The notes: generated by a model not told the origin, from the sequence alone. A stretch of 64,000 nt of DNA from an uncultured delta proteobacterium (GCA_963705275.1 OY970063.1:476438-540437), one strand, 5' to 3'. Positions 7,709-57,866 are shown, counted from the first letter of the stretch. Made by a program: numbers and translations.

Positions 7709-9742
7709 TCAACGCGTGCCGTATTCAAAAAATCGCATGGAGAAAGTGGCCCTGCCTTGAGTCGCAGACCGCAGGTCTGTTGAATATCCAAACATTTCCT
7801 TCAGAGGTATTTTGCCCCTGATCTCACTTATAGTTCCCTTCGGCGTGATCGCTTGAATTTCCCCTCCTCTGGCATTTATGTCTCCTATAACCTCGCCCAT
7901 GAATTCCGCCGGCACGATGACATCTACCATCATGATCGGCTCAAGCAGTATAGGATCAGCCTGCAAACAACCATTTCTGACTGCAGATGATGCGGCAATC
8001 TTATAACCAAGCGTCGTAGATTCCCCTTCCCTGAAAGATCCTCCAGTTATCGTCACCTTGATATCCACAATGGGGTAACCACTGATTACACCGCTGAGTG
8101 TCGCTTCTTCAATGCCCTCGTGGATGGCAGGATAAAACTCTTCCGGTATTACGATTTCGCCTGTCTGTATAGCAATCTTATTTCCTTCTCCCCTGCTTCT
8201 GGGTTCAAGCAATAACCGAACATGACCAAAATGCTTTCTTTCGCCAAGTTCTTTTTCAAAGAGGCCTTCAGCCTCTATTTTCCTTTGAATAGTCTCCCGA
8301 TAGACGACCCTGGGCTTACCAACATTTACATGGGCGCCGAAATCTCTCTTTAACCTATCAGTGACAATTTCCAGATGAAGTTCTCCCATGCCTGAAATTA
8401 CGGTTTGAGCTGTCTCGTCATTATACTTCACTTCAATCGTAGGATCTTCTTCCATCAGCTTGCCCAGCGCGATGCTCAGTTTTTCCTGATCCGCCGGCGT
8501 CTTGGCCTCTATAGCCTGACTTATTACGGGTTTATAGAACTCAATAGGTTCGAGAAGAATCGGACGGGACTCATCGCAGATCGTATTTCCAGTCGTTGTA
8601 TCTTTGAGACCCAGAACAGCAACGATATCTCCGGCACCGCACCTGTTGATTCTTTCTCGCTTATTGGCATGCATCTTCAACAGCCGCGCAATCTTTTCTT
8701 TTCTTCCGATGCTGGCATTATACACTGCATCGCCCACTTTTAAACTGCCCGAATAAACTCTAAGATAGGTTAACTTCCTTCCTTCATCCTGTCTGATCTT
8801 GAATGCCAGGGCAGCGAGGGGCTCATCGTCGCTGCTGAGCCTCACTTCTTCCTTTTTCGTTACAGGATTGGAACCCTTGACCGGAGGGATGTCCTCCGGT
8901 GAGGGAAGAAAGTGAACTATAGAATCAAGTATGGGTTGAATGCCTCTATTTCTCAGGGCGGAACCGCACATAATAGGTACCGCCTTTAAAGAGATGGTTG
9001 CCTGTCTAATGGCTCTGATTATCTCTTTTTCCGAAATAACTGTTCCATCCAAATATTTCTCTGCAATATAGTCATCCATCTCGGCTAGTGATTCAATCAG
9101 TTTCTCACGAGACTCTTTGGCTTGCGGAAAATTGTCAGATGGAATATCTGACAATGAAAAAGATGACCCAAGCGTACTGTCGTCCCAGATAATTGCCTTC
9201 AGTCTGATCAGGTCTATGATGCCTCTAAAATTATCTTCCTCGCCCAGCGGTATCTGTATTGGTAGCGGTACTGAGTTAAACCTTTCGCCCATAGTCTTTA
9301 TTGTACCAAAATAATCGGCACCGACTCTGTCCATCTTATTGATAAAAGCTATTTTAGGTACACCATATTTATCGGCCTGATGCCAGACTGTTTCCGACTG
9401 CGGTTCGACGCCGCCAACTGCGCAAAAGACAACTAGTGCTCCGTCCAAAACTCTTAGGCAGCGTTCAACCTCCATCGTAAAATCTACGTGCCCGGGTGTA
9501 TCAATTATCTGGATGTCATGATTTTCCCAGGTACAGGCCGTAACCGCTGAGGTAATCGTTATGCCTCTCTCCTGCTCCTGGGGCATCCAGTCCATTGCAG
9601 CTTCGCCGTCATGGACCTCCCCCATCTTGTATAGTATTCCTGTATAGAAGAGTATTCTTTCGGTGACGGTGGTCTTACCGGCATCTATGTGGGCAACTAC
9701 ACCGATATTGCGTGTTCTTGAAAGCTTCTTTCTTGAGGCCAT
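7709..9742 (-). CDS. fusA: elongation factor G family GTPase (paralog outside the str operon)
   Basis: 677 aa. G motifs [17 protein letters not shown] and NKMD are present. Domains III-V are recognisable, ending ...[13 protein letters not shown]. Confidence 0.9.
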
Positions 9743-35741: not shown

Positions 35742-36977
35742 TCATTTATCGATATCGATGACAGTTGTGATATCTGCCCTCCCCTCTTTCTTCTTCACCA
35801 GGAAATAGAGCTCCCCTGTTTCCTTAAGGCTGCCCGCCAGCATCTCCGCCCCGCCGCCGGTCCCACAAAACAGATCAACCCGTCCCGGTCCTTTGATAAC
35901 ACCTCCCGTGTCCTGATTGAGAACGAAGCGGGAGAAGGTCTCCCACGATTTGATATTTCCGTCTTTTTCAAAGACAGGCTTCCGCAGCCTGATGAAAGCA
36001 AGAGCGCCTCTCGGGAATAAATCAAGGTCTGTCGCGATTGACCTGCCCGAGGTAAGTGTAAGACCAAGGGCGCCTATGGGGCCGTTTTCGACGATGCGAA
36101 AAAATACATAGCTCTCGTTGTAGTTGAAAATATCCGAGAGCTCTTCGGGATGCTCCCTCAAGTATTTCTTTATAGACTGATGCGTCATCTCACTCTTGGA
36201 GAGCTTGCCTTTATCCAGAAGGTATCGTGCCATTCTATTCGGTCGGCCATTCTTCTGGGCATAACTGACCTGCATGGACCGCCCATCCGTTAATGTTATT
36301 TCTCCCGACCCCTGGATATGCATAAAAAATAAGTCAATGGGATCATTCACCCAGATAAGCTCAAGGTTTCTTCCCTTGAGAACTCCAGATTCTTCAATAT
36401 CGGCCCTATTAAAATAAGGGACCAACTCGCCGCTCTTCAATCTACCTATAATTTTTTCATTCTTGTATTTCTCGCTGAATTTGCCCAAATTGGCAACGAC
36501 GATGTCATCGGGGGTCTTGTAAATCGGATACCTGTATTCATCTGTCCTTTCCAGTGAACCTTTCAAGACAGACTCGAAATATCCCGTGAAAAGCACTCTC
36601 CCCTGATTGTCAAGTCCAGCGGCTCTGTACAAGTCAAATGTATTCAGTATTTTTTCCCGTTTGACTTCGTCCGAATCAGAACCGTTCAGGATTTTTCGAA
36701 AAGCTAGAAGTGACTCTCTTAATTCCCTGCCTGTAATATGGCCATCGCCAATCACGTACATATTATTCCCGGCACTTCTTTCATAGTACTCGATACTTCT
36801 TTCAATCGCCGTGCCCAGTGAATCACCATCCAGATCATCTGCTAAGGGAGGGACTTTATCAGGAGGAATCAATACGAGGGCGGGTGGAATCTTCTCTTGA
36901 GGTCTTCCAATTCCAGCCGCGCAGCCGGCTGCAAAGAAAATAACCAGGAGAAGGCAGAAAATACGAAAGGGTCTCAT
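35742..36977 (-). CDS. mltA: membrane-bound lytic murein transglycosylase A-like lipoprotein
   Basis: The lipoprotein start MRPFRIFCLLLVIFFAAGC is at ATG 36977. The MltA domain is followed by a 3D domain (...SGRSIATDLDLFPRGALAFI...GGVIKGPGRVDLFCG). The longer ORF to 37085 overlaps the upstream gene. Confidence 0.85.
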   Translation of the reverse strand: MRPFRIFCLLLVIFFAAGCAAGIGRPQEKIPPALVLIPPDKVPPLADDLDGDSLGTAIERSIEYYERSAGNNMYVIGDGHITGRELRESLLAFRKILNGSDSDEVKREKILNTFDLYRAAGLDNQGRVLFTGYFESVLKGSLERTDEYRYPIYKTPDDIVVANLGKFSEKYKNEKIIGRLKSGELVPYFNRADIEESGVLKGRNLELIWVNDPIDLFFMHIQGSGEITLTDGRSMQVSYAQKNGRPNRMARYLLDKGKLSKSEMTHQSIKKYLREHPEELSDIFNYNESYVFFRIVENGPIGALGLTLTSGRSIATDLDLFPRGALAFIRLRKPVFEKDGNIKSWETFSRFVLNQDTGGVIKGPGRVDLFCGTGGGAEMLAGSLKETGELYFLVKKKEGRADITTVIDIDK

Positions 36978-36984
36978 GTGCACC

Positions 36985-37443
36985 TTAAAGTTCAGTGACC
37001 ATCGCCACTTCATCGCAGTAGTCCGGATACTTCGAACATCGGAAGCAGTCCGACCAGATCTTCTCGGAGAGGGTCGACCGATCAACCTCTTTAAATCCGA
37101 GACGCTTAAAATAATCCGGCCTGTTTGTAAGCGTAAACATCCTGTAAAAACCCAGGGTAATGGCCTCGGAAATGCATCCCTCTACGAGTTTTTTCGCTAT
37201 TCCCTGCCCTCTATATTTTTCTTCCACATATAGAGAGCGGATCTCCGCCAGATTTTCCCATATTATATTCATTGCGCAGATGCCTGCTACGGCCTTCTCC
37301 TTTTCGTCAAAATAAATGAGGAAATCCCTGAGGCTGCCGTAGATATCCATAAGGGAGCGGGGGAGTATTTCCCCCTTCCCCGATGACAGATTGATCATCC
37401 TGTGGATCGTCTTTACATCACCGACGCGGGCCTTCCTCAGCAT
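36985..37443 (-). CDS. GNAT-family N-acetyltransferase (short ArgA-like)
   Basis: 152 aa. The acetyl-CoA motif is YVEEKYRGQGIAKKLVE. Confidence 0.75.
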   Translation of the reverse strand: MLRKARVGDVKTIHRMINLSSGKGEILPRSLMDIYGSLRDFLIYFDEKEKAVAGICAMNIIWENLAEIRSLYVEEKYRGQGIAKKLVEGCISEAITLGFYRMFTLTNRPDYFKRLGFKEVDRSTLSEKIWSDCFRCSKYPDYCDEVAMVTEL

Positions 37444-43389: not shown

Positions 43390-44721
43390 ATGAATGAAGA
43401 ACCGACACTCAGAGTGGGCATCCTGCAGGGCTACAGTGAAGTACTAGGAAGGCTAAACGGCCCATTTCTTATCAATGATGCCCTCAGTCTAAGCGGGACG
43501 TTCAGGGCCTATGAACGAGAAGGCCGCATCCTCCTTGCCGATGCTGCGGGACATGAGATAATCCATGAGAAAGAAGTTCGGTGCACCCCCGTCGATGATT
43601 CAACCTTCACCCTCCTCGATGTGATGATCGGTGTGAATTTCCACTGGCAGAGAAAACAGGAACAAACTTTCCGCGGAGAACTGAGGCTCATCCTAGACGA
43701 AAGCGACAAGCTCGTTGCCGTCAATAGAATTCCTTTGGAAGATTATTTATCAAGTGTCGTTTCCTCAGAAATGAATGCTGAAGCGGGGTTGGAATTCCTC
43801 AAGGCCCATGCAATTGCGTCACGTAGCTGGCTTGTGTCCATGCTCGGAATGGCAGGCAAGGCAGTGCACGGAGGAAATGCATCGGCCGGTCCAGACCGGC
43901 AAACTAAAGAGCACATCAGGTATTACCAGAGGGTTGACCACACGCTTTTTGACGTCTGTGCGGACGATCATTGCCAGCGGTATCAGGGCATCAGCCGGCC
44001 AATGTCTGATAACGCCCGGCAGGCAGTTGAGAGAACACGCGGCCTGTTTCTCGTCTACAACAATGAGATCTGCGATGCCCGTTATCATAAAGCCTGCGGC
44101 GGTCTGACGGACAATTTCGCAAATACTTGGGATGGTGTCACCGTCCCATATCTCACGTCCGTCCCGGACTCTGCTGTCCCGTATGATCCGATCCGCACGG
44201 AGGCCGAAGCCAGGAAATGGATTCTGGGAGATCCGGGGGCATATTGCAATACTGAAGACCCCAATGTCCTGCGCAGGATTCTCCCCTCCTTCGATCATGA
44301 AACGGCGGATTTTTTCCGCTGGAAGGTGGCGTATACACGCACAGAACTGGAGGATATCGTCCGGGAAAAATCGGGGGTGGATTTCGGCAATCTCCTCTCT
44401 CTCACTCCGGTTGAACGCGGCCCCTCCGGCCGCATAGTGAGGCTGCAAATCGCAGGATCGAAAAGAACTCTGACCATAGGCAAGGAGCTCGAGATCCGTC
44501 GCTGGCTCTCACGCAGTCATCTTTACAGCAGCGCATTTGTCGTTTGTGCGGAGAATGATAAGTCCGGCCTTCCAGTCCGCTTTATCCTGCATGGCGCCGG
44601 ATGGGGACACGGCGTAGGCTTATGCCAGATAGGGGCAGCCGTAATGGCCATAAAAGGCTTTACGTCAGAATCTATTTTGAAACACTACTATAGTGGTGCG
44701 GAGCTTCAGAAGCTTTACTGA
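43390..44721 (+). CDS. SpoIID/LytB-domain protein lacking any N-terminal signal or anchor
   Basis: ...EDYLSSVVSSEMNAEAGLEFLKAHAIASRSW... and ...GHGVGLCQIGA... are SpoIID/LytB hallmarks. The N-terminus MNEEPTLRVGILQG is hydrophilic. Confidence 0.8.
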   Translation: MNEEPTLRVGILQGYSEVLGRLNGPFLINDALSLSGTFRAYEREGRILLADAAGHEIIHEKEVRCTPVDDSTFTLLDVMIGVNFHWQRKQEQTFRGELRLILDESDKLVAVNRIPLEDYLSSVVSSEMNAEAGLEFLKAHAIASRSWLVSMLGMAGKAVHGGNASAGPDRQTKEHIRYYQRVDHTLFDVCADDHCQRYQGISRPMSDNARQAVERTRGLFLVYNNEICDARYHKACGGLTDNFANTWDGVTVPYLTSVPDSAVPYDPIRTEAEARKWILGDPGAYCNTEDPNVLRRILPSFDHETADFFRWKVAYTRTELEDIVREKSGVDFGNLLSLTPVERGPSGRIVRLQIAGSKRTLTIGKELEIRRWLSRSHLYSSAFVVCAENDKSGLPVRFILHGAGWGHGVGLCQIGAAVMAIKGFTSESILKHYYSGAELQKLY

Positions 44722-44730: not shown

Positions 44731-45453
44731 ATGCGAAAATCACCTATCAGAACTTCTTTCATTCTCGGCGCCGGGCTGGGAACGCGCCTGCGCCCTCTGA
44801 CCGATAACTGCCCGAAACCGCTCCTGCCCGCAGGCGGACGCCCGATGATCACTCATGCAATGGATCATCTTATATCTGCGGGTATAGAACGCTTCATCGT
44901 CAATACCCATTATTTTGCAGAGGCATACCATAAGGCATTCCCGGATCGGCAATGGCGGGGGATTCCAATAATCTTCCGGTATGAACCTGTGCTTCTGGAT
45001 ACAGCGGGGGGCATAAAGAACATAGAAGATCTCCTTGACGGCGACGAAAGGATCCTCGTTTACAATGGCGACACCTTTACGGACCTGCCGCTTACTCATC
45101 TCATCAATGCACACTACGCGATGCGGAAGGAAGTCACCCTGGCTCTGAGAAGCAGTGGTTCTCCTTTGAACGTCAATCTGAACGCACGGGGCGATATATG
45201 TGACCTGCGGCATACACTGGGCGACCGCGGTGTTAAGAGCTGTTTATTTACGGGCATCTATATCGTGGAAAAAGCCTTTCTCCGACGCCTCACAGAGGGC
45301 CGCAAAGAATCGATTGTCCCTGTCCTTGTCGCCATGATCAGGGAAGAACCTGGATCGGTGGCGGGGATAATAATCGATGAAGGTCGCTGGTATGATATCG
45401 GATCTGTGGCGGAATATGAGAGGATAAATTCATTGCTCGCAGGATCGAGGTAA
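44731..45453 (+). CDS. murU: sugar-1-phosphate nucleotidyltransferase, MurU-like
   Basis: ILGAGLGTRLRPLTDNCPKPLL is a nucleotidyltransferase signature. The length is 240 aa and it is adjacent to an AmgK-like kinase. Confidence 0.65.
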   Translation: MRKSPIRTSFILGAGLGTRLRPLTDNCPKPLLPAGGRPMITHAMDHLISAGIERFIVNTHYFAEAYHKAFPDRQWRGIPIIFRYEPVLLDTAGGIKNIEDLLDGDERILVYNGDTFTDLPLTHLINAHYAMRKEVTLALRSSGSPLNVNLNARGDICDLRHTLGDRGVKSCLFTGIYIVEKAFLRRLTEGRKESIVPVLVAMIREEPGSVAGIIIDEGRWYDIGSVAEYERINSLLAGSR

Positions 45454-45593: not shown

Positions 45594-46682
45594 ATGCATC
45601 AAGATGATAAAATGCTCCACTTCGTACGCAAGGCACTGCGGCTTGGGAGATCAGATACCCTGACCATCATGCCTATGGCCAAACGTGGATCAAGCCGGGC
45701 CTTTCAACGAATCAAATATGAAGATCATGGCTCCGTCATTCTTATGTGCTATGACCACGTGCGCAGAGAGAACAACTACTACGCTGCCATTGCCGACTTC
45801 CTCCTGCAGATCCATATCCCCGTCCCGCGCATTCTGGCGCACGACCATCTGATGGGCTTCATCGTCATGGAGGACCTGGGAGATAGAGACCTGTGGTCCT
45901 ATAAGGATGATCCGTGGACAAGAAGGAGTGCATATTACCGCGCGACCCTCTCCATTGCACAGAGACTCCATACCTTTCCCGTCGAAGATTTCCCTTTTGA
46001 TAAAGTCCCTCTGATGGAAGGATTCAGCCTCGACCTTTACCGATGGGAGCGAAATTACTTCATGGACAATTTTGTTCACGCCGTCTGTGGCATCAAACTC
46101 AATCCACGGGAAACAAGAGATTTAGAGGACGAATTGAACGGCTTGTCGGGGCGGCTTGAGGATGCAAAACCCAGCCTTGTGCATAGAGATCTTCAATCGC
46201 AGAATGTGATGATATGCAAGGACCAGCCGGTATTCATAGACTTTCAAGGCATGCGGGTCGGCAATTTTTTTTATGACCTGGGGTCACTGCTCTATGATCC
46301 CTATGTCTCCCTGACGGAGGATGAACGGATGGAGCTGCTCTTTCATTACTACAAACTTCCGGCTTGCGACGGCACAGACACTTTACAAAATGATATATCT
46401 TCGGGCGATAAAGTCGCCAAAGTTAAGCAGGTGAATGCTGATATGCGACAAACGGACTGGACGGTATTTCAGGATAGATTTAGGGACGCGTCGGCACAGC
46501 GCCTCATGCAGGCGCTCGGCGCTTATGGTTTCCTGGGACTGAAGAGTGGTCTTTCAGAATTTCTCACACATATCCCCAAAGGCATTACAAATCTTGCTGA
46601 CAGCGCTGCGCGCGCAAAACAGCTGCCATTGCTTAACGATCTGGCGCTGAAATGTCAGCAGTCTCTCGGACGCAAATCATGA
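45594..46682 (+). CDS. amgK: anomeric sugar kinase of the APH/choline-kinase fold, AmgK-like
   Basis: The Brenner/catalytic motif LVHRDLQSQNVMI and the FIDFQGMRVGNFFYDLGSLLYD motif are present. It is paired with a MurU-like gene. Confidence 0.65.
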   Translation: MHQDDKMLHFVRKALRLGRSDTLTIMPMAKRGSSRAFQRIKYEDHGSVILMCYDHVRRENNYYAAIADFLLQIHIPVPRILAHDHLMGFIVMEDLGDRDLWSYKDDPWTRRSAYYRATLSIAQRLHTFPVEDFPFDKVPLMEGFSLDLYRWERNYFMDNFVHAVCGIKLNPRETRDLEDELNGLSGRLEDAKPSLVHRDLQSQNVMICKDQPVFIDFQGMRVGNFFYDLGSLLYDPYVSLTEDERMELLFHYYKLPACDGTDTLQNDISSGDKVAKVKQVNADMRQTDWTVFQDRFRDASAQRLMQALGAYGFLGLKSGLSEFLTHIPKGITNLADSAARAKQLPLLNDLALKCQQSLGRKS

Positions 46683-46836
46683 GAATGCCATGGACAATCT
46701 TCCCGCGCAGACAGGCGTCCTGATACGGATTGTCTGCTCGCGGGACCGTTTTGAATTCTTTGCCGTTGACATCTAATTGCAATCGTTCTATAAAAAAAGA
46801 GAGAGAACCTCTCGGCAGCACAGGGTAAATCACTAT

Positions 46837-48051
46837 ATGACAACTGAATTGACATATGTAGTTATCACACCATACAGCCTCCTCAAGTCGAGGACCGGCA
46901 ATATCATAGCACGGCTCATGTCTCTCTCCGGCTGCGACCTGGTCGGTATCCGCATGATGCGGCCGTCGGATACGTTTGTAAATGAATATATACGGCGTGT
47001 GAAAAGTTTGAACATCCCCAAGGTGGGCAAGGCGCTCGTCGATTATATCGACCAGAATCTTCGGCCTGAAAATATCTTGAAACAGCAGAATCGCTGTTTG
47101 TTTCTTCTCTTCGAGGGCGCGGACGCTGTCGCGAGAATCTACGACGTTGTCGGTAAACTAACCACTGTGACGGAATCAGAGGCCAATCGCGGAACAATTC
47201 GCGGAACCTACAGCGACTATATCACCACCCCTGACGGAGCTGTCCGGTACTTCGAGCCGGCAGTCCTGTTGCCCACGAACCTTGAATATGCAAAGAACAA
47301 TCTGGAATTTTTCGCAAAGTTTGGATTCAGCGATTCCGGCATCTACGAAGAATGTTCCGAAGGAGAAACAACACTGGTCATCCTGAAGCCCGACAATTTC
47401 TTCAAGCATTCTGTCCGCCCGGGAAATATGATCGACATGTTTTCCAAGACGGGTCTCCGGATTGTCGGCGCCCGGATGATACGTATGAGCGCCGCCCAGG
47501 GCGAGGAGTTCTATGGATTCCTTCGCGACGTTTTCAAGAAGAAGCTGAGGCCACAGATCGTGGCCCATCTTAAACAGGGAATGGAGGGCCTCTTCAATTT
47601 CCAGATAACAGATGACGAATTCAATGCCATGGCTGAAGTCATTAGCGAAAAAAATGCCCTGTACGAATTTTCACAGATCGTAAAATACATGACCGGCCTC
47701 GACCCGAAAGATGTACCGCCGGCAGACCGAGACAAACCCGGGAAACACCTCGCGCTGGCGCTTCTTTACCGCGGCCTTAACGCAGTTGAAATAATACGTG
47801 AACGCCTGGGCGTAACCGATCCCGCAATCGCCGCAGAAGGAACTATCCGTTCCGATTTCGGCCAGAACATTGTGCAGAATGCGGCACATGCATCCGACTC
47901 CGTCGAAAATGCCGTCCGTGAAAGAAAAATCATCGGTCTCTATGACGATGCAGGCGACGACTGCAAGAGAATAATCGAAGACTGGCTGAAGGATGATCGT
48001 GGCAGTTCAATGCCCTTGAAGGAAACAGCGAGAATTCAAAAACAATTTTAA
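46837..48051 (+). CDS. tandem nucleoside-diphosphate-kinase-like protein (degenerate NDK plus catalytic NDK)
   Basis: The second half has TLVILKPDNF..., ...GTIRSDFGQNIVQNAAHASDSVENAVRE (the NxxH.SDS active-site His) and an insertion. The first half is NDK-like (YVVITPYSL..., RGTIRGTYSD) but lacks the His. Start taken at ATG 46837. Confidence 0.7.
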   Translation: MTTELTYVVITPYSLLKSRTGNIIARLMSLSGCDLVGIRMMRPSDTFVNEYIRRVKSLNIPKVGKALVDYIDQNLRPENILKQQNRCLFLLFEGADAVARIYDVVGKLTTVTESEANRGTIRGTYSDYITTPDGAVRYFEPAVLLPTNLEYAKNNLEFFAKFGFSDSGIYEECSEGETTLVILKPDNFFKHSVRPGNMIDMFSKTGLRIVGARMIRMSAAQGEEFYGFLRDVFKKKLRPQIVAHLKQGMEGLFNFQITDDEFNAMAEVISEKNALYEFSQIVKYMTGLDPKDVPPADRDKPGKHLALALLYRGLNAVEIIRERLGVTDPAIAAEGTIRSDFGQNIVQNAAHASDSVENAVRERKIIGLYDDAGDDCKRIIEDWLKDDRGSSMPLKETARIQKQF

Positions 48052-48155
48052 TGAAGGATTGCTTCTCAAGTATCGTGAGCTTTCAGAAGCGACTTAGCTG
48101 AACTCCGGCATGAACTGCCAGTTGCCCCGAAGGGTCTCATGTTGTAATCCTGCCT

Positions 48156-48790
48156 TTAGAAGACCGATGAACTCATTCGCGGGAAATGTAGCGAGCCCCC
48201 AATGCTTTCCAGATGGGCCGTATAAACCTGGCAATCCAAAAACTTAAATTTGAGTCCCTTCAATTTGTAGACCAGATCGATCAACGCCGCCTTTGATGCG
48301 TTGCTCATAAGCGAAAACATAGACTCGCCGAAAAAGCATCGCCCCAGCGATACACCGTAGATGCCGCCGACAAGTTTTTCCTCATGCCAGGCCTCTGCTG
48401 AATGGGCATTCCAAGATCGTGCAGTGTGCACAGTACGCCTCAAGCATGTCATCCGTAATCCAAGTGCCATTCTGTTCTCCTCCGCAATTTCTGACAAGAT
48501 AGAACGACTTCACGAAATTTATGATCGTACGTAATCCGAAAGATCCCTTGCCGTAATACCTTCTTCATGCTTCGGGAGACTCTGAGTTCTTCCAGAAATA
48601 ATACGAATCGCGGGTTGGGAGACCACCAGATGATGGGATCGCCTTCTGAATACCATGGGAAAATGCCCTGGCGGTAAGCCGTCGAGAAGCCTACCGGGCG
48701 AAAGGTCACCACCGATGGCAAGGATACCATTTCCCGATGTCAGCTGCACGGGAGGAAATTTATTTCGTCACCCAGTCGAAAAATCGGCAT
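48156..48790 (-). pseudogene. aat: leucyl/phenylalanyl-tRNA--protein transferase, multiply frameshifted
   Basis: Aat blocks are recovered only by hopping frames: MPIFRLGDEINF / GNGILAIGGDLSP / AYRQGIFPWYSEGDPIIWWSPNPR / [14 protein letters not shown] / LHDLG / [30 protein letters not shown]. Confidence 0.8.
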
Positions 48791-48907
48791 GAGATATTTA
48801 GTGCCAGACTCCCATAGCCCGATGGGCACTGTGAGGCGTTAAGTCATAACTCTGAGGTTTTGAAAAAGAGAATCTGCGCCCGTCGCAAGTGCTAAGTGAC
48901 CTAGGAT

Positions 48908-51183
48908 CTACTCTTCGAGAACCCGCACAGTGACATCATCACCTTCAATGTCCGCAAGAGCAGTGCCGCCTTCTTGCAGCTTCCCGAAAAGCACCTCATC
49001 CACAAAGAATCGTTTTATCTTGTCCTGGATCAGACGGGCAATCTCTCTTGCCCCGAATTCCTGGGAATAGCCTTTACGGGCAAGCCATTCATAACACCGG
49101 TCTGTAACCTTGAGGGTTACATTCTTTCTCCTGCAACTGAACGGAGAATTCACCGATCGCCTTTTTTACGATCATGAGCACTACTTCATGGGTAAGGCCG
49201 TTAAAGTTGACAACCCCATCAAGACGGTTTCTGAATTCAGGCGAAAAGATCCGCTCCACCGCCGTGAATACGGCGTCCCTGATTGACATTCTTGGCCTCA
49301 AATCCGATAATCTGCCTGCCGATCTCCCGCGCACCGGCATTCGATGTCATGAGTATGACTACGTTACGGAAATCTGCCTTCTTTCCGTTGTTGTCCGTCA
49401 GCGTCGCGTAGTCCATCACCTGGAGCAGATGTGTTGAAAATATCGGCATGAGCCTTCTCGATTTCATCAAGGAGCAAGACGGAATGGGGATTCTTTCTGA
49501 TAGCCTCGGTGAGCAGTCCACCTTCTTCGTAACCCACATAGCCCGGCGGCGCCCCCACAAACTTTGCAACGGTGTGCTTTTCCTGATATTCACTCATATC
49601 ATAGCGGTGCAGAGGCACTCCGAGAGTAGTGCAAGCTGTCGCGCAAGTTCGGTCTTTGCCCACACCCGTCGGGCCCACAAACAAGAGGGAGGCAACGGGT
49701 TTGTGAGGTTCACGGAAGCCCTACGCGTGAGCGCTTGATGGCATCCACTACCAGCTCAATCGCTTGATCCTGTCCGAAAATCTTACTCTTGAGGCTTGTC
49801 TCCAGATCCTTCAGCTTGTCCAAGCTCGGATGACGAAACGCTCTTTTCCGGTATTCTGGCTATCTTTGCATCAACCGCTTCGATATTATGAAGATCGACT
49901 ATCTTTTCTACGCCCTCATCGGCATCCTTCATATTAGCCAGAGCGCCGGCTTCATCGATTACATCGATTGCCTTGTCCGGAAGCCTTCGGTCATTGATAT
50001 ATTTGTCAGGATAATTCCGCGGCGCCCGAATGGCCTCTTCGGTATATGACACACGATGATATTCTTCGTATTTGCTTCTTGATACCCTGCAAGTATCTTC
50101 ACTGTATCATCTGTTGTCGGCTCCGATACCTCAATCTTTCTGGAACCTGCGGGAAAGAGCTCCATCCTTCTCAAAATATTTGCGGTATTCGTCGTATGTG
50201 GTGGAGCCGATGCACCGGAGCTTGCCTGAAGCAAGTGCGGGTTTCAGAATATTGGACGCATCCAGCGAACCGCCTGACACAGCCCCGGCGCCGACTATAT
50301 TATGAATCTCGTCGATGAACAGGATTACCTTTTCCTGTCTCTGAAGTTCAGCGATTACGCGTTTCATGCGCTCTTCAAAATCACCCCGAAATCTGGTGCC
50401 GGCAATGATCGCTCCCATATCCAGGGCGTATATCTTCGAATCCTTCAGTCGTTTCGGAACCTTCCCGTCAGCAATGAGCTGCGCCAGCCCTTCGGTTATG
50501 GCCGTTTTCCCAACCCCGGGCTCTCCGACATGGACAGGGTTATTCTTGAATCTTCGGCACAGGACCTGGATAGTCCTCTCAAGAATATCCTCCCGCCCTA
50601 TAAGGGGATCGATCTCTCCTGCTTTCGCCTTGGCAGTCAGTTCTGTCGTGAATGATTTCAGTATCTTGTTTTGCTCAGAATCCTTTTCTTTGGACTCTTG
50701 TTCAGGCTCACTTTCCTCTCGCTTCCTGCCCCGCTTTTGTACTTCCGTAGTTTCGGGAATAACAGAGACGCCGTGAGAGATATAATTGAGCAGGGAAAGT
50801 CGTGTGATGCCTTCTTTCTTGAGGAAAAATGAGGCATAGGACCCCTTTTCATCAAGAATTGAAACTAGAACATCTCCCAGTTCAACAATATCCTTCTGCG
50901 CAGAGGTGGTATGCCATACCGCTCTCTCCAGAACATTTTGAAAACCCAATGACTGGACGGATTGAGCCCCCTCCACAACCGGATTGCCCTCGCGGAGATG
51001 CTTTGCCAACACTCTTTTTAAATGTTCGGGATCGCCGCCGCATCTTTGGATGATGTCAGATCCGTCATCAAAGAAAAGCGCGGCATAGAGAAGGTGCTCA
51101 GGCGTTACGAACTCATGAGACCGCGTATTGGCCTCGGCATATGCGGCCATGATGATTTGATTCAGACTTTCACTTATCTTCAT
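48908..51183 (-). pseudogene. clpA: ATP-dependent Clp protease ATP-binding subunit ClpA; N-terminal ~349 codons in frame, remainder multiply frameshifted
   Basis: It is in frame from ATG 51183 to about 50137 (N-domain, Walker A GEPGVGKT, ...RRFQK). After that, ClpA blocks are scattered over all three frames: [15 protein letters not shown]; [17 protein letters not shown]; KYINDRRLPDKAIDVIDEAGA; IFGQDQAIELVVDAIKRSR; [11 protein letters not shown]; [12 protein letters not shown]...[10 protein letters not shown]; [23 protein letters not shown]; [12 protein letters not shown]; EFGAREIARLIQ. The total length of 2276 nt is about that of a full-length ClpA. Confidence 0.85.
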
Positions 51184-51200
51184 TGTATTCCCCCTGTCGA

Positions 51201-51524
51201 TCAGGCCTCTTCCAATGAGCACTTCAGGGGAAATTCTTTCAGCTTCGCCATCCTATGGACCTGCGCTGCTTTCGTGGCGGCAATATCATAGGTATACACA
51301 CCACATGCCCCGGCCCCTTTCTTATGGACGTCGAGCATTATTTTGGTGGCTTCCGCCGCTGGCTTATGGAACACAAGTATCAGAACTTCGACGACAAATT
51401 CCATTGTCGTATAATGATCATTATGAAGTATGACCCGATACATCTTCGGTTCTTGGAGGACCGTATCGGGATCTAACTTGACATCTCTGTCATCCATTGA
51501 ATCAGGATCACGATATTTCGACAT
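51201..51524 (-). CDS. clpS: ATP-dependent Clp protease adaptor ClpS
   Basis: [21 protein letters not shown]... is the ClpS core. ATG 51524 is preceded by GAGGG. The stop is 17 nt upstream of the clpA start. Confidence 0.9.
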
Positions 51525-52103
51525 ATATCCCTCAAACTGCACATCAGTAGTTTGCCTTCTAGTAAATCTACAACACTAATATAGAACACAGGAGGCTGAC
51601 TGTCAATGTCGTTATTGGGCTCCTGGAAACGCTGTAAACTTGGATAATTAGATATTCAGACAATCTCATGCCTTTTTTTGCGATGACAGGGATGCCCCCT
51701 TTTCATGATATCAGGGTGGTTTCCGTCTATCCGATAATTTTGTATTATATGATAGCCCCCCTATCTGCAAAGCTTCGGATTTTGCGAACTCGCCGCGACA
51801 TAGGGCAAGACCACCAATCTGCCAGATAGGTACTTGAGGGAGATATATTTTGCCTTTGTATCCGTTAATTTCTATGCTAAAAAATCTGAGCCGTTAAATA
51901 TGCTCAACAAATTGAATCCTTCGGTTCTTTTGCTGCAGTGTCCGTACTTGCAACAAGAAACGATGCAGGATATATTTCAGCTATCTAAGATTAGAGCGGC
52001 TTTGCAACTGGTTTGCGAAATAACAAATTAAGCTTAATTGCCCAATCACAGGACAGCATGCATAGCTCGTGTAAAGATAGAATAGGTCTTTAGGGGGTAC
52101 CCG

Positions 52104-53585
52104 ATGAACAAATTGACCGTCGCTCTGCCGTTCAGCTTGCACTCCGGTTTTGAAAAGACGCTCCGACTCTTCCTTCAATCACAGCTGATTGACGAAGTGT
52201 TTATACTCCATGAGGGCGCCTTCAAGCCGCCATGGCCGAAGTGCAAAGTTATAAGAGCATCATCCCTTTCCTCCGGCAGGGTATTGAACAACCTCATAAA
52301 AAGAGTCAGAACGGATTTTCTCATGATGATCGTGGAACCCGAGGAAATGGAGATTCCGCCCGGCACGCTCGACCGTCTTATTGAAGTGGCGGAAAAAACG
52401 GATTCTGGCATGATCTATTCCGACTACCTGGTAAAGGAACAGGGCGACCTTGTTGAACATCCCGTCAATGACTATCAACTGGGAAGCATCCGTGACGAAT
52501 TTGATTTCGGATACTTGATCATGTTCTCTGTATCTGCAATCAGACGTGCATTAAGAAAATACGGCCCCGTACCTGACGTCGTTCATGCAGGATTGTATGA
52601 CCTGCGCTTGAAGGTTTCTGTCGACCAAAGTCTTTTCCATATTCAGGAATTCCTCTACACGAAGAAAGGATCAGACACCGACGCGGACAAAGACAGATCG
52701 AAGCGTGAAAACCATTTTAATTATGTCGATCCGCGTAACCAGGCCGTGCAAAAAGAATTGGAAATGGTTGCAACAGAGCATTTAAAAAATATCGGCGCCT
52801 TCTTGGAACCGCGCTTTAAAAATATGCCTCAACCTCGCTATGATTTCCCCGTTGAGGCAAGTATCATAATTCCCGTCCGCAACCGGGTGGGGACAATTAC
52901 AGATGCGGTGCATAGTGCTTTGACGCAGGAGACTAACTTTCCGTGCAACGTAATTGTTGTGGACAATCATTCCACTGATGGAACCACGCCCCTCCTTACT
53001 GAACTTGCCGGGAGTAATCCTGCTGTGAAGCATGTCATTCCGTCGCGATCTGATCTAACTATCGGCGGTTGCTGGAACGAAGCAATCTTCTCAGAATTCT
53101 GCGGCCGCTATGCCGTACAATTGGACTCGGACGATGTTTATAAGAGCCCCGCGACATTGCAGATGATCATCGACGTTATGAGAAGCGGAGACTTTGCCAT
53201 GGTCATCGGTTCTTATACACTCGTCAATGAAGCGCTGCAGGAGATTCCGCCCGGCATAATCAACCATAAGGAATGGACGGATGACAACGGACGCAACAAT
53301 GCACTGCGCGTAAACGGACTGGGCGCGCCGCGCGCCTTTGATACTGCTCTTCTTCGCAGCTTCCGCTTTCTCAATGTGGGTTACGGAGAAGACTATGCTA
53401 TGGCCCTCCGATTATCGAGAGAATATCGAGTAGGCAGAATTTATGAGAGCCTCTATCTATGCCGGCGGTGGGCAGGCAATACGGACGCTCGCATCTCCAT
53501 TGAGAAGAGTAACCGCCATGATGCGTTTAAAGACAAAATTCGAACTATCGAAATCATGGCTCGTCAGAAGCTGACGGCGAAATGA
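52104..53585 (+). CDS. family 2 glycosyltransferase with an extra N-terminal GT-A-like domain
   Basis: 493 aa. The C-terminal half has IIIPVRNR...NVIVVDNHSTDGT and the DxD-type QLDSDD. The N-terminal ~240 aa is unassigned. GGGGG/SD-like sequence lies upstream. Confidence 0.85.
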   Translation: MNKLTVALPFSLHSGFEKTLRLFLQSQLIDEVFILHEGAFKPPWPKCKVIRASSLSSGRVLNNLIKRVRTDFLMMIVEPEEMEIPPGTLDRLIEVAEKTDSGMIYSDYLVKEQGDLVEHPVNDYQLGSIRDEFDFGYLIMFSVSAIRRALRKYGPVPDVVHAGLYDLRLKVSVDQSLFHIQEFLYTKKGSDTDADKDRSKRENHFNYVDPRNQAVQKELEMVATEHLKNIGAFLEPRFKNMPQPRYDFPVEASIIIPVRNRVGTITDAVHSALTQETNFPCNVIVVDNHSTDGTTPLLTELAGSNPAVKHVIPSRSDLTIGGCWNEAIFSEFCGRYAVQLDSDDVYKSPATLQMIIDVMRSGDFAMVIGSYTLVNEALQEIPPGIINHKEWTDDNGRNNALRVNGLGAPRAFDTALLRSFRFLNVGYGEDYAMALRLSREYRVGRIYESLYLCRRWAGNTDARISIEKSNRHDAFKDKIRTIEIMARQKLTAK

Positions 53586-54592
53586 GGACGAACATGGATC
53601 CCCTCTTGCAGGAAAGAATATCGGCCTCATTTGACGGGAAAGCGCTTGGGCCGTCTCTGTCAGCGCTTTGCCGCAATCTCCTCCAGGAGCAAAAAACCTC
53701 ATGGCGTGATCTTTGTCTGGGATATGAAGCTCTCCGAAGCGTACGGGTAAAGGAACTCCGTTGCAACGGCTTTTCCGTGAGGCTCCATCATAATCCCGCA
53801 AGAATCAAGAGCACTACTGCCCCGGTTGATCAGAAATCCATCGATAAGAGACCTTGTTTTCTCTGTCTCGAAAATCTCCCTGAACCGCAGCGTGGCATCT
53901 TGTATAGGGAGGATTTTATCGTTCTCTGCAATCCCTTTCCCATCTGTCCGGAGCACTATACAATTGCGCACATCGCTCATGGTCCGCAGTCGTTTGAAGG
54001 AATGGTTTCCACATTTCTAAAAATGACAAAGGACTTCAGCCCGGATTTCAATGTGTTTTACAACGGCCCGGAAAGCGGCGCATCCGCACCGGACCACCTG
54101 CACTTTCAGGCGACTCCTCGGGGAATACTGCCGATTGAGAAAGAAATCGTGGATAGGGCAAGACTGGCATTAGTCAAATGTATTCATGCCATTCCTCTTT
54201 TCAGAGCAAAAAATGTGGGGAGGGAAGTTATTATTGTGGAAGGAGAAGATTCCGCTGCAATCGGCGATGCCTTGACAAGCATCGTCTCGGCCATGAAGAG
54301 TGTCCTATCGTCACCGGCAGAACCGCAGATGAATCTGCTCGGCTCATATGAGAAAAACACATGGCGAATCCTAATATTCCCGCGCCGGAGGCATCGCCCC
54401 TCTGTCTACTTTTTGCCGGGCAACGAAAGGATTTTGATCTCGCCGGGACTGGTAGAGATGGGAGGTATCATCGTAACGCCCATAGGAAAAGATTTTGACA
54501 TGGTCGACGAGGAACTGATTAGGAAAATTTACGCGGAAGTCTCAGTCGGCGAAGAAACCATTCAAAAAATACTGGAAGTCCTATCCCTTTGA
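53582..54592 (+). CDS. HIT-superfamily (GalT branch, HxHxQ) nucleotidyl phosphorylase/transferase-like protein, DUF4922-like
   Basis: YNGPESGASAPDHLHFQ matches the NxG..SGAS..HxHxQ signature of Ap4A phosphorylase / GDP-L-galactose phosphorylase-type enzymes. The ATG overlaps the GT2 stop (ATGA). Confidence 0.6.
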   Translation: MRTNMDPLLQERISASFDGKALGPSLSALCRNLLQEQKTSWRDLCLGYEALRSVRVKELRCNGFSVRLHHNPARIKSTTAPVDQKSIDKRPCFLCLENLPEPQRGILYREDFIVLCNPFPICPEHYTIAHIAHGPQSFEGMVSTFLKMTKDFSPDFNVFYNGPESGASAPDHLHFQATPRGILPIEKEIVDRARLALVKCIHAIPLFRAKNVGREVIIVEGEDSAAIGDALTSIVSAMKSVLSSPAEPQMNLLGSYEKNTWRILIFPRRRHRPSVYFLPGNERILISPGLVEMGGIIVTPIGKDFDMVDEELIRKIYAEVSVGEETIQKILEVLSL

Positions 54593-55149
54593 CACTTATG
54601 AACTTGACCGCCATTGTTGACAGCAGGATGACATTTGAGCAGGCCATTGCCGGCACAAGGGCACCCCGCGAGATAATTGGCAAATTATGCCTGGTCGAAG
54701 TGCGCTACCGGGCATTCGACGGCCGATTACACCAGGGACAACTCATCGTTCACCAAGAGGTGAAAACGGACATTATGGAAATTTTTAGCCTGCTTGAGCA
54801 GAGCGCGTTTCCCGTTCATCAGGTTATACCGATCGTGAAGTACGACTGGTCTGATGACCTGTCGATGGCAGACAATAATACATCTGCCTTCAATTACCGA
54901 TTGGTTCTGGGCACCGATAGGTTATCAAACCATGCATTTGGAAAGGCTGTGGATATCAACCCTTATTTGAACCCTGTGATAGATGAGGACGGCCGGATTG
55001 ACCCTCCAGGTGCCAGCTATATTCCCGAGAGGGCAGGAACATTTGGCGATTCACACCCTGTCGTGCAAGAATTCCTGAATCGGGGATGGCGCTGGGGAGG
55101 GCATTTCAGGCCGAAGATAGACTACCACCATTTTGATAAGCCGGCATAG
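54589..55149 (+). CDS. M15-family (LAS) zinc peptidase, VanY/D-Ala-D-Ala carboxypeptidase-like, no signal peptide
   Basis: SNHAFGKAVDINP (SxHxxGxAxD) and the C-terminal DYHHFD are present. The TTG start overlaps the previous stop (TTGA). An in-frame ATG alternative lies at 54598. Confidence 0.75.
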   Translation: MTLMNLTAIVDSRMTFEQAIAGTRAPREIIGKLCLVEVRYRAFDGRLHQGQLIVHQEVKTDIMEIFSLLEQSAFPVHQVIPIVKYDWSDDLSMADNNTSAFNYRLVLGTDRLSNHAFGKAVDINPYLNPVIDEDGRIDPPGASYIPERAGTFGDSHPVVQEFLNRGWRWGGHFRPKIDYHHFDKPA

Positions 55150-55921
55150 CGCGCCCAACCATGATTCCCGCCATCACATTTCTTGTCGAAAGGTACTTAC
55201 TCAGTGTGACGTCGGAGATAACAACTCTTTTCTCCGCTTCCGATGCATGCAGGAGATGAATCCTGCTTCCCAAGCGGACGGCAAGACCGACGTGCATGAC
55301 GTCCAATCCCTTTATGTCCGTAGTAATCGCAATCAAATCCCCATTCTCGGCCATGTCTTCGAACTTTCCTAACGCAGCTTTCGGAATATGATGCAGTATT
55401 CTCCTGGACAGGCGCCTTTCAATGCCCATCATTTCCCGATAAGGTTTCTCCAAGTTCAAGACGGGATATTCTTCCCGATGCCCTGTCATAAAATTAAAAT
55501 TCTTCCGGAATGGTTCCCCACCGGACCTGCAGGTGACATTCTTTAATATCCTTTTTTGCTCGTTGTCATAGAGCCAGTCGGAAAAATAATGGAGACGCGA
55601 GGAATATCCCTTCGTTATGCCGTGGCGGTAACGAATCTTTTTGAGCCGCGCGGCATAGCCCCTGAAATGGGCTTTGCCCCTTCCTATCATCCCTGCCAGG
55701 GCGATAACATTTTCCGCAAAGGTGAAGCAGTCAAATTCTCTTAGATTTATGACGAGGGCCTCCTTCCCCCGCCTTTCAAGCGTGTTGCTCGCGTATGGAA
55801 AACCCAGAAAATACTTTCCCACGCCCAGCATCACCTCGCCGATCGATCTCGCTCCTTCGTCCTTACAAAGGGATCTCACAAGACCATCATAAATGACGCG
55901 ATCTTCAGGCTGATAAATCAC
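55106..55921 (-). CDS. DUF1460-like (N-acetylmuramoyl-L-alanine amidase-like) protein
   Basis: 271 aa. ...GKYFLGFPYASNTLE...LVINLREFDCFTFAENVIAL... is recalled as the DUF1460 pattern. It has no signal peptide, and its start overlaps the upstream gene stop. Confidence 0.55.
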   Translation of the reverse strand: MIYQPEDRVIYDGLVRSLCKDEGARSIGEVMLGVGKYFLGFPYASNTLERRGKEALVINLREFDCFTFAENVIALAGMIGRGKAHFRGYAARLKKIRYRHGITKGYSSRLHYFSDWLYDNEQKRILKNVTCRSGGEPFRKNFNFMTGHREEYPVLNLEKPYREMMGIERRLSRRILHHIPKAALGKFEDMAENGDLIAITTDIKGLDVMHVGLAVRLGSRIHLLHASEAEKRVVISDVTLSKYLSTRNVMAGIMVGRAMPAYQNGGSLSSA

Positions 55922-56769
55922 AATTGGACCTCTGCGCCATCGAACCCTATCGACGCAGCGGAGCCGTCTTCGGGAATCACCAATGACACGAACTTCTTTT
56001 CATCGTATGCAGAACCCGGGTTGATTGATATTAAGGATCCTTTTCTCACAACCTTCTGGTCGTGCGTGTGTCCACATATATGGTATCTGACCTTTGGATG
56101 ATTAAGAAGCATCTCTCCGAGTCTATCGCTTCCCATAAAGGCGTTACAGAAAGTCCACCCGGGAAACGCTTCTCTCATAGTCAGCATTTCGATGAAGCCG
56201 ATATGATGGGTAACGGCGATTATATGTTCTACCTCGGCTTCCAGTCTCTCTATATCCCTCTCCAGCTTTTGGTTAAGTTCACTGGTGTAATCCATATCCG
56301 ATTTGCCAAGGCGCACGAAATGGACATCATTCCAGATAATGTGTCCTCCGAATATTTTCTTTTCATGCGACGATCGCGGAGGCATCTCTCCCGGAGAGAA
56401 GGAATAATCATACCACAGGCAATTGCCCGCAAAACCTATACCGCCGACAATTACGGGCTTCTCATCGAGGAGCATGAATCCGCAGTCCACGATTCTTGAT
56501 TTCAAGATTTCAAGATGACTGGGCGTATCACCTTCGTTGCTCCAGTAGTCATGGTTTCCAAAAACCTTGAGCCTGATGGGCGCCACTTCACTGAAAAGGT
56601 TCAAACATTCTTCCAATCTTGAAGAACCGAGGCCCACCGTGTCACCCGCCAATACAAGCACGTCAGGTTGCTCTCTCTCCAGTCTTCTTATAAAATTCAG
56701 CAATTTATCACGCTCTGCCGCGTTTCTTATCAGGTCGTAATGGATGTCACCGGTTGCTGTAATTTTCAT
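55918..56769 (-). CDS. calcineurin-like metallophosphoesterase
   Basis: The motifs GDIHYD, LAGD, GNHD and GHTH occur in the canonical order. The length is 283 aa. Confidence 0.8.
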   Translation of the reverse strand: MKITATGDIHYDLIRNAAERDKLLNFIRRLEREQPDVLVLAGDTVGLGSSRLEECLNLFSEVAPIRLKVFGNHDYWSNEGDTPSHLEILKSRIVDCGFMLLDEKPVIVGGIGFAGNCLWYDYSFSPGEMPPRSSHEKKIFGGHIIWNDVHFVRLGKSDMDYTSELNQKLERDIERLEAEVEHIIAVTHHIGFIEMLTMREAFPGWTFCNAFMGSDRLGEMLLNHPKVRYHICGHTHDQKVVRKGSLISINPGSAYDEKKFVSLVIPEDGSAASIGFDGAEVQL

Positions 56770-57260: not shown

Positions 57261-57866
57261 ATGTCTTCAAAAAACTATAAGCTGATATGCTTTTCTATTC
57301 TCTTAGTGCTGGGTACTTTTTTTGTCGTACTCTATTATGGCCCCCGATATCTTGCTTACGCTGATAAACCTCTGAATTCAGATGCCGTAGTACTCTTTGT
57401 GGGGCCCGACAACAAGGCCCGGCAGGAAGACGCAAATCGTCTGATGCATGAAGGTTATGCCCGATATCTTTTCATCCCCGCGTATGGAAGAATCACGGAG
57501 GCCTCATCTTTGTCATCTACGGCAGGGACAAAGAAAGCAAACCCAGAACTAATTATTACCGGCCTCAAACCCAAGCCCTATTTTGAAAATACACATGTTG
57601 AGGTACTCGAGGCAAAACGAATGATGGAGCAGTACGGATTGAAGTCTGCAATCTTTGTTAGTTCATCCATTCACATGCGGCGCATAAAGATCATCACGGA
57701 CAGAGTCTTTCATGAAGAACCCGCGAGAATCGTCTTTGTGCCCATTCGAGCCGAACCTGCGCCTCAGGATTTTTTCGAACTGACGCTGTCCGATTATAAG
57801 CGCATGGGGAAAGAGTATGTCAAAATCATCTGGTTTTTGATGTACTCCTCGTTCCGGTCAACCTGA
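57261..57866 (+). CDS. DUF218/YdcF(ElyC)-like membrane-anchored protein
   Basis: An N-terminal TM (LICFSILLVLGTFFVVLYY) is followed by ...DAVVLFVG... and ...FVSSSIHMRRI..., resembling DUF218. Confidence 0.5.
   Translation: MSSKNYKLICFSILLVLGTFFVVLYYGPRYLAYADKPLNSDAVVLFVGPDNKARQEDANRLMHEGYARYLFIPAYGRITEASSLSSTAGTKKANPELIITGLKPKPYFENTHVEVLEAKRMMEQYGLKSAIFVSSSIHMRRIKIITDRVFHEEPARIVFVPIRAEPAPQDFFELTLSDYKRMGKEYVKIIWFLMYSSFRST

Follow-up and report, generated by a model that had tools for sequence, protein, structure and literature searches.

The subject of this report is a gene cluster at 52104–56769, with a gene group some 7 kb upstream of it, in a 64,000-nucleotide stretch from an uncultured delta proteobacterium (GCA_963705275.1 OY970063.1:476438-540437), referred to below as the window. 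Comparison with related loci revealed a conserved cytoplasmic unit, consisting of a tandem GT-A glycosyltransferase (GT2), a DUF4922 enzyme with an HxHxQ motif and a SpoIID-like protein, which is embedded in operons for the salvage of peptidoglycan fragments. Around this core there are variable accessories: an AmpG-like importer, AmgK/MurU-like or NagK-like kinases, a NagZ-type GH3 and peptide-removing enzymes. It is probable that the GT2-DUF4922 pair acts in salvage on amino sugars derived from peptidoglycan. That the locus as a whole represents the Syntrophales version of a widespread cytoplasmic peptidoglycan-fragment salvage system, with a core that would exchange amino sugars, is given a probability of about 0.5. 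The organism is assigned to Syntrophales by the names of its homologues.

Scanning a single genome for each species yielded 582 DUF4922 relatives, from which the best 80 loci were retained; with those added later, 87 loci were compared, nearly all of them from metagenome-assembled genomes (MAGs) and with genes called by a simple open reading frame (ORF) script. The window proteins were searched against these loci by tblastn, and the counts given below are for genes within 8 kb of DUF4922 in the 87 loci. GT2 was located upstream of DUF4922 in 82 loci, the remaining 5 being cut at that point, and this adjacency is kept in Thermodesulfobacteriota, Ignavibacteriota, Bacteroidota and KSB1. The SpoIID-like gene was found in 33 loci, either downstream of DUF4922 or upstream together with MurU/AmgK. 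Other recurring neighbours were AmgK-like (30 loci), a GNAT gene situated between GT2 and DUF4922 (28), MurU-like, sometimes fused to the kinase (26), AmiA-like, always convergent to DUF4922 (25), M15, always directly 3′ of DUF4922 on the same strand (20), AmpG-like MFS (19), a NagK-like BadF kinase (12), a transglutaminase-core protein (9) and GH3::beta-lactamase (5). Two forms of the operon were read from Pfam-annotated contigs, SpoIID-MFS-NTP_transferase-APH-GT2-GNAT::DUF4922 and NTP_transferase::APH-GT2-DUF4922-M15. A third form, BadF kinase-GT2-GNAT-DUF4922-SpoIID-MFS-GH3::beta-lactamase, occurs in Ignavibacteriota and Bacteroidota; there, the best NCBIfam matches were AmpG for the MFS protein, NagK for the kinase, and NagZ plus PBP4B for the GH3 part. 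The constant element is thus the GT2-DUF4922 pair, and its recurring partners are genes for peptidoglycan import and breakdown. A first-pass annotation of the window had instead proposed a five-gene module made of GT2, DUF4922, M15, AmiA-like and metallophosphoesterase genes. As a conserved unit this set was ruled out, the metallophosphoesterase being present in just 4 of the 87 loci; the set is lineage-specific and confined to the closest relatives.

In a search of 1.84 billion representatives, the DUF4922 branch comprised 1642 clusters (50% identity) at E <= 1e-3 and 675 at E <= 1e-30. GNAT::DUF4922, GT2::DUF4922 and DUF4922::SpoIID proteins were among the top 150 of the 1642 clusters, and several Smithella-type MAGs encode GT2::DUF4922 as a single ORF of about 800 aa. 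These Rosetta-stone fusions suggest that GT2, DUF4922 and the SpoIID-like protein are tied to consecutive steps in one compartment.

In the window, GT2 (52104–53585, plus strand, 493 aa; Pfam Glycos_transf_2) is followed on the same strand by the genes for DUF4922 (53582–54592), of the GDPGP1/VTC2-type HxHxQ nucleotidyltransferase-phosphorylase class, and M15 (54589–55149), whereas the AmiA-like gene (55106–55921) and the metallophosphoesterase gene (55918–56769) lie on the minus strand. All five ORFs are present as annotated in the first pass, the Pfam families are those it had predicted, and the motifs it had quoted occur in the translations (VVDNHSTDGT and LDSDD; GPESGASAPDHLHFQ; SNHAFGKAVD and DYHHFD; GDIHYD, GNHD and GHTH). 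The two operons do converge, with a 44-nt overlap of their 3′ ends at 55106–55149; a convergent overlap of 8–44 nt was also seen in 4 close relatives (L002, L003, L004 and L005). With regard to the stop/start overlaps, ATGA at 53582–53585 and TTGA at 54589–54592 were found as described, but the one at 55921–55918 on the minus strand is GTGA and not ATGA, the start codon of the AmiA-like gene being GTG, as in its closest homologues. The start of DUF4922 is probably ATG 53594, because GAGGA precedes it at 53584–53588 and most close homologues have 332 aa, not 336; with this start, the GT2/DUF4922 junction would be an 8-nt gap and not an overlap. For M15, TTG 54589 and ATG 54598 are equally possible as the start. 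Tight packing of this kind is ordinary for operons, and the weight rests on the comparative data, not on the overlaps. In a scan, terminator-like sites were not commoner than in shuffled sequence, and promoter-like matches were modestly above it, by about 2 standard deviations. As had been claimed, none of the five products showed a signal peptide or transmembrane segment: a hydropathy scan, which is cruder than SignalP and by which alone localisation was judged, detected no typical hydrophobic stretch, the highest 19-residue Kyte-Doolittle mean being 1.61 for an internal segment of DUF4922.

The DUF4922 protein matched Pfam PF16269, a family in the GalT branch of the HIT superfamily, with an E-value of 6.5e-53 (179 bits, cut-off 23.6). 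Alignment of 13 diverse homologues revealed that H172 and H174 of the HLHFQ motif are invariant and Q176 nearly so, and that a CFLC motif is invariant as well; this CxxC motif may resemble the zinc site of GalT. When the structural model (pLDDT 84.5) was searched with Foldseek, the best match was yeast Apa2, an Ap4A phosphorylase (E 3e-10, TM-score about 0.58), followed by GalT (E 1e-5), consistent with a two-lobed GalT/Apa2-type fold; sequence identity to Apa2 and to E. coli/human GalT is 12–17%. A close solved structure was also sought by sequence and none was accepted, the best real match being Apa2 at E 0.054 and the rest designed proteins. The DUF4922 domain is known from GDPGP1, a GDP-glucose phosphorylase, and from VTC2, which corresponds to it in plants (PMC7041677). 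With these two eukaryotic enzymes, of which VTC2 is the GDP-L-galactose and GDPGP1 the GDP-D-glucose phosphorylase, the window protein shares both Pfam domain and HxHxQ motif, whereas it belongs to a bacterial branch, is partnered with GT2 and carries the CxxC motif. GDPGP1_C (PF26216) is listed in the precomputed annotation of close homologues; in the window protein, it gave no Pfam match even at E <= 1. Sequence and model together identify the protein as a predicted GDP-hexose-phosphorylase/Ap4A-phosphorylase/GalT-fold enzyme, a class within which phosphorylase and transferase are not separable by sequence. A precedent for pairing a kinase with a GalT-fold enzyme is the bifidobacterial galacto-N-biose/lacto-N-biose pathway, in which the anomeric kinase NahK, an APH-type N-acetylhexosamine (HexNAc) 1-kinase, works with a GalT-type uridylyltransferase that moves UMP onto HexNAc-1-phosphate; these are not family-level homologues, and the pathway has no GT2 or SpoIID partner.

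GT2 matched Pfam PF00535, the profile for the inverting GT-A glycosyltransferases of family 2, over residues 253–395 (E 4e-18, 66.3 bits, cut-off 23.3). Its C-terminal half is the catalytic GT2 domain, in which D341, S342, D343 and D344, with the DxD motif for metal and nucleotide binding, are invariant among 20 homologues, and its N-terminal part of about 245 aa is GT-A-like, without a Pfam family and without a conserved DxD or acidic motif at the equivalent place. Full-length homologues, 57–96% identical, span phyla. The model (pLDDT 74, with low confidence at residues 369–408 and 444–464) has two GT-A-like domains, and its best matches in the PDB were the two-GT-A enzymes K4CP (chondroitin polymerase), LH3 and PmHS2 (heparosan synthase), a group that also gave the closest sequence match of the catalytic domain (E 1.4e-8). 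TM-scores to them are about 0.3, owing to a differing domain arrangement, and in contrast to them the window GT2 keeps DxD in the C-terminal domain only. Assignment to a characterised exopolysaccharide, lipopolysaccharide or teichuronic pathway was tried and rejected, as the NCBIfam matches were 15–39 bits against cut-offs of 180–600; the best equivalog score was 39 bits (cut-off 400).

The third core partner, a SpoIID/LytB-like protein, is encoded at 43390–44721 on the plus strand (Pfam SpoIID) and had been omitted from the five-gene set. It scored 170.8 bits against TIGR02669 (cut-off 83.3), and in alignments to 4rwr and 5i1t its VVSSEMNA paired with VVASEMNA and VLAGEMSS (the SEM glutamate region) and its GHGVG with GHGVG. 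These features are common with SpoIID of Bacillus/Clostridioides, a lytic transglycosylase with specificity for peptide-free glycan. Unlike that enzyme, the window subfamily has a conserved soluble N-terminus (M..EPxIxVGI, about 40 loci), lacks a signal peptide or transmembrane segment, and can be fused behind DUF4922. By hydropathy, the N-terminus is free of hydrophobic segments in the window copy, in about 40 homologues and in the copy from Tannerella forsythia described below; the AmiA-like and M15 homologues in other loci are likewise without leaders. A cytoplasmic site, predicted from these N-termini, would be unusual for the SpoIID/LytB family.

An operon that contains the core has been studied experimentally in T. 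forsythia. Genes Tanf_08345–Tanf_08385, annotated as "xanthan lyase", gtf, gtf, lytB, ampG, namZ1, murT, murK and murQ, are co-transcribed and function in salvage of N-acetylmuramic acid (MurNAc) (PMC5388701) and of muropeptides; both gtf genes are listed in the T. forsythia literature as having unknown function. When proteins were searched with a DUF4922 sequence from Chitinophagaceae, no Tannerella was among the 120 matches listed. Of the published reverse transcription PCR primers, one 19-mer was used as an exact DNA pattern on metagenome contigs. On contigs L100 and L102, 7–8 of the published operon primers matched exactly. Eleven other contigs matched the 19-mer; 4 carry this GT2 (L090, L093, L097 and L101), and the remaining 7 have no module proteins and by appearance are chance matches. 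L102 has the gene order Golvesin_C protein, GT2, DUF4922, SpoIID-like, AmpG-like MFS, NamZ and MurT, and its GT2 (488 aa), DUF4922 (311 aa) and SpoIID-like (438 aa) proteins are 45%, 37% and 49% identical to those of the window, respectively. Orthology of Tanf_08350, Tanf_08355 and Tanf_08360 is indicated by the same genes occurring in the same order on DNA with the published primers; the second "glycosyltransferase" of the operon is thus, judged by sequence, the DUF4922 HxHxQ enzyme. The operon has the core in the order GT2, DUF4922 and SpoIID/LytB-like, the last without a signal peptide as in the window, followed by an AmpG-like MFS, whereas the SpoIID-like gene of the window is grouped with the MurU/AmgK-like genes at a distance of 7 kb upstream, ampG, namZ and murTKQ are not nearby, and M15, AmiA-like and metallophosphoesterase genes are additional. 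The earlier view that the module was undescribed therefore needs partial correction as regards the core. It holds in that the literature search found no function described for the GT2/DUF4922 pair and no pathway to which the pair had been assigned; nor did any of the five window proteins reach an NCBIfam equivalog threshold.

T. forsythia takes up the disaccharides N-acetylglucosamine (GlcNAc)-1,6-anhydroMurNAc (anhMurNAc) and GlcNAc-MurNAc via AmpG and grows on both, with no predicted AnmK (PMC7670621), and it is devoid of glmS, glmU, murA and murB (PMC5790795). With three unfilled steps and three uncharacterised cytoplasmic enzymes encoded beside ampG, one enzyme can be assigned to each step. 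It is possible that the salvage system fills the gaps left by AnmK, GlmS and GlmU, through a chemistry that we infer in outline below.

The remaining three genes of the window cluster appear to be accessories of differing standing. The M15 protein, a predicted cytoplasmic zinc peptidase of the LAS/M15_4 type, matched Pfam PF13539 (Peptidase_M15_4) with E 1e-16 (61.6 bits, cut-off 25); among 11 syntenic homologues, there is no variation at its zinc-ligand residues, namely H115 and D122 of the H-x6-D pattern and H180 and H181 near the C-terminus. No NCBIfam match was obtained for it, a single-sequence search of solved structures gave no match, and the only one in the PDB by profile was weak, to the L-Ala-D-Glu peptidase Ply500 (E 0.021 over 33 residues). 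The AmiA-like protein, a putative NlpC/P60-type MurNAc-L-Ala amidase, matched PF07313 (formerly DUF1460) with E 1e-46 (159.5 bits) and Bacteroides uniformis AmiA (PDB 4h4j, 4q5k) with E 1.6e-42, and in the alignment to 4h4j the catalytic Cys/His motifs EFDC, MHVG and LLHAS were paired. Amidases of this type have a CHH catalytic triad (PMC10318531). The first-pass annotation had credited DUF1460 with an amidase-like fold; amidase is right but understates what is known, since the family is already characterised as active on GlcNAc-anhMurNAc-peptide (PMC4600125). The related AmiA domain of B. thetaiotaomicron BT1087 is proposed to act in the periplasm, whereas neither the window protein nor any of its homologues in synteny has a signal peptide; being so, they would act like AmpD. 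The metallophosphoesterase matched PF00149 (E 2e-15, 58 bits), with GDxHxD, GNHD and GHTH motifs present, and scored 92 bits against TIGR03729, below the cut-off of 148. This gene is an addition confined to one lineage and probably stands outside the conserved system.

Two genes that directly follow the SpoIID-like gene on the plus strand encode a MurU-like sugar-1-phosphate nucleotidylyltransferase (44731–45453; Pfam NTP_transferase) and an AmgK-like APH-family sugar kinase (45594–46682; Pfam APH). MurU and AmgK are their best NCBIfam matches, with scores far under the equivalog cut-offs: 126 bits (cut-off 250) and 83 bits (cut-off 370) for the MurU models, and 69 bits (cut-off 550) and 33 bits (cut-off 500) for the AmgK models. 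A mannose-1-phosphate guanylyltransferase model scored nearly as high as MurU (118 bits), and the designation AmgK/MurU-like fits better than the AmgK/MurU of the first pass. The link that had been suspected between these genes and the cluster gained support, as they are directly co-operonic with GT2-DUF4922 in other lineages. The noted mismatch with the canonical recycling set was also borne out, no member of the AmpD, LdcA, NagZ, AnmK or MupP families being found among the five proteins and ten scanned neighbours. GNAT, NagK-like, AmpG-like, GH3 and transglutaminase-like genes were not found in the window (tblastn, E <= 1e-3). The AnmK-MupP-AmgK-MurU route of Pseudomonas is alike in purpose, leading from amino sugars to UDP-MurNAc, and the window likewise has an adjoining APH-type kinase and nucleotidylyltransferase, but these score far below the equivalog cut-offs, and in the literature no version of that route was found to include GT2, DUF4922 or cytoplasmic SpoIID-like members.

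The next gene after the AmgK-like one (46777–48051, plus strand) encodes a 424-aa protein, three stretches of which match the nucleoside-diphosphate-kinase (Ndk) profile, usually of about 135–141 positions. The position of this gene is kept in L002, L005 and L008 and not elsewhere; the protein could regenerate UTP from UDP for the nucleotidyltransferase encoded nearby. An MltA-type lytic transglycosylase (MltA and 3D domains) is encoded on the minus strand at 35742–37085, 15 kb upstream, which suggests that anhydromuropeptides arise in the periplasm of this organism in the conventional way.

Several variations were observed among the loci. The small GNAT gene, located for instance at 11475–11993 in L086, 9486–9992 in L088 and 9479–9988 in L089, is fused N-terminally to DUF4922 in proteins P0113 and P0358; a GNAT paired with a nucleotidyltransferase has the same activities as GlmU in unrelated folds, and the window itself lacks the GNAT. 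In L088, a 129-aa gene (9095–9484) lies between GT2 and GNAT, for which the precomputed annotation gives PF27154 (ORF11_beta) and our Pfam scan no significant match. The transglutaminase-core protein, of cysteine-peptidase fold, was located near the module in L082 and L084 (about 4200–5250) and in L049, L054, L055, L062, L065 and L079, and may be a further peptide-processing accessory. The sole exception to the pairing was seen in the Bacteroidota locus L085 (6610–10113), where GT2 protein P0194 is followed by a GH2 glycosidase gene and not by DUF4922. Contig L006 (1509 bp), binned as "Candidatus Sumerlaeota", carries fragments of DUF4922, M15 and AmiA-like genes 74–84% identical to those of the window and, from this identity, looks like a mis-binned Syntrophales contig.

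On the salvage reading, the pathway would start with the AmiA-like amidase stripping the stem peptide off imported (anhydro)muropeptides, with M15 trimming the peptide. The peptide-free GlcNAc-(anh)MurNAc would then be handled by group transfer and not by hydrolysis: GT2 may exchange a HexNAc between the disaccharide and UDP, yielding UDP-GlcNAc directly in the reverse direction, and DUF4922 may interconvert UDP-HexNAc and HexNAc-1-phosphate, either by phosphorolysis or by transfer of UMP to MurNAc-1-phosphate. The SpoIID-like protein would act at C1 of MurNAc, opening or relaying the 1,6-anhydro bond, with MurNAc passing to the AmgK/MurU-like pair. The net outcome would be UDP-GlcNAc and UDP-MurNAc from a recycled disaccharide at little cost in ATP. 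In its strongest form, with GT2, DUF4922 and the SpoIID-like protein as an ATP-sparing glycosyl relay that replaces NagZ, AnmK/MupP and GlmS/GlmU, we regard this proposal as speculative and rather unlikely to be right in full.

There are several points that weigh against the salvage scheme. Its reactions were deduced from context, fold and fusions, and a Leloir glycosyltransferase acting backwards on an ordinary beta-1,4 glycoside works against the equilibrium and would have to be pulled. Some operons include a NagZ-type GH3, with which cleavage of GlcNAc-MurNAc by GT2 is partly redundant. The GNAT has no obvious role unless N-deacetylated sugars or glucosamine-1-phosphate are involved, and the low scores of the AmgK/MurU-like proteins mean that the identity of the sugar is not fixed. 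In about 11 loci, GT2-DUF4922 stands alone among unrelated neighbours, and one GT2 has no adjoining DUF4922. Lastly, the loci are nearly all from MAGs and the proteins were localised by hydropathy only.

An alternative is that the locus is biosynthetic, GT2 building either a glycoconjugate or a glycan of the cytoplasm or envelope from an NDP-sugar that is made out of salvaged amino sugars by the kinase and then MurU-like/DUF4922, with the SpoIID-like protein processing the product. The intact DSDD domain of GT2 and its likeness in fold to the polymerising tandem GT-A enzymes K4CP and PmHS2 would suit such a role, as would the weak matches of the associated GNAT to the NDP-amino-sugar enzymes PseH and WecD, a PMT_2 membrane glycosyltransferase in one locus, and the first description of the T. 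forsythia operon in the literature as "glycosylation-related". However, the N-terminal GT-A-like domain is without the conserved DxD that a two-site co-polymerase would be expected to have, and genes for a flippase, a polymerase, a polyprenyl-phosphate transferase or export are absent from the loci, the conserved partners all being concerned with peptidoglycan import or degradation. The fusions, which join a phosphorylase-type enzyme and a homologue of lytic transglycosylases, also suit turnover more than export. We consider the biosynthetic role unlikely.

Recycling or editing of cell-wall precursors by the five genes had been suggested in the first pass; the peptidoglycan-recycling context and the cytoplasmic enzymes were upheld, the five-gene unit was not, and editing is not favoured. 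In an editing or repair system, DUF4922 would serve in quality control as a phosphorylase, removing incorrect NDP-sugars that a promiscuous AmgK/MurU-like pair produces, much as GDPGP1 removes GDP-glucose in animals, and GT2 would be a separate consumer of the correct product. This draws on DUF4922 being a domain of the GDPGP1 family, loss of GDPGP1 resulting in accumulation of GDP-glucose (PMC7041677), and on its co-occurrence with AmgK/MurU-like genes. Yet practically all loci pair DUF4922 with GT2, also where AmgK/MurU are not nearby, and DUF4922 is fused to GT2, GNAT or SpoIID, whereas repair enzymes are rarely fused to enzymes acting downstream of the pool they police; editing is accordingly judged improbable. 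It is also conceivable that no system exists and that five unrelated housekeeping genes were packed together by chance, given that start/stop overlaps are common in compact genomes and that the metallophosphoesterase and the exact five-gene order are restricted to close relatives. Against this, GT2 and DUF4922 stay adjacent across the four phyla named above, three kinds of fusion protein exist, and M15 and AmiA-like keep a fixed position and orientation in 20 and 25 loci, respectively. Chance juxtaposition is largely refuted: it is excluded for the core pair, still possible for the metallophosphoesterase, and extremely improbable for the cluster as a whole.

Other genes in the vicinity were also noticed. 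Between the upstream gene group and GT2, clpA (48881–51222, minus strand) is broken: a full-length ClpA homologue aligns to it in frames −2, −3 and −1, and the longest intact ORF covers the first 363 aa only, the several frameshifts reflecting either a pseudogene or local sequencing errors. The adjoining clpS (51201–51542) is intact, and the gene at 48097–48790 (minus strand), beside clpA, aligns to its homologue in two frames, so that this 3-kb stretch has two frameshifted genes. Beyond the metallophosphoesterase, a DUF218 protein whose N-terminal segment is strongly hydrophobic is encoded at 57261–57866 (plus strand), in the same place as in L002 and L003.

Peptidoglycan recycling is well mapped in proteobacteria, and there are acknowledged holes elsewhere. 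The present analysis adds that one of the T. forsythia "glycosyltransferases" is a predicted GDP-hexose-phosphorylase-type enzyme, and that GT2, DUF4922 and a SpoIID homologue devoid of a signal peptide form a unit that is kept, and sometimes fused, in at least 4 phyla. The salvage gap of T. forsythia thereby becomes three named enzymes with defined candidate substrates. If group transfer is indeed how the core works, amino sugars would be salvaged by a biochemical logic that is new, a Leloir glycosyltransferase would be used physiologically in reverse, which is rare, and the lytic-transglycosylase fold would have a role in the cytoplasm. The relay, if true, would explain how T. forsythia lives without the genes mentioned, as well as the frequency of the system in energy-limited anaerobes such as syntrophs. 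As an oral pathogen that relies on cell-wall scavenging, T. forsythia may offer a possible drug target in these enzymes.

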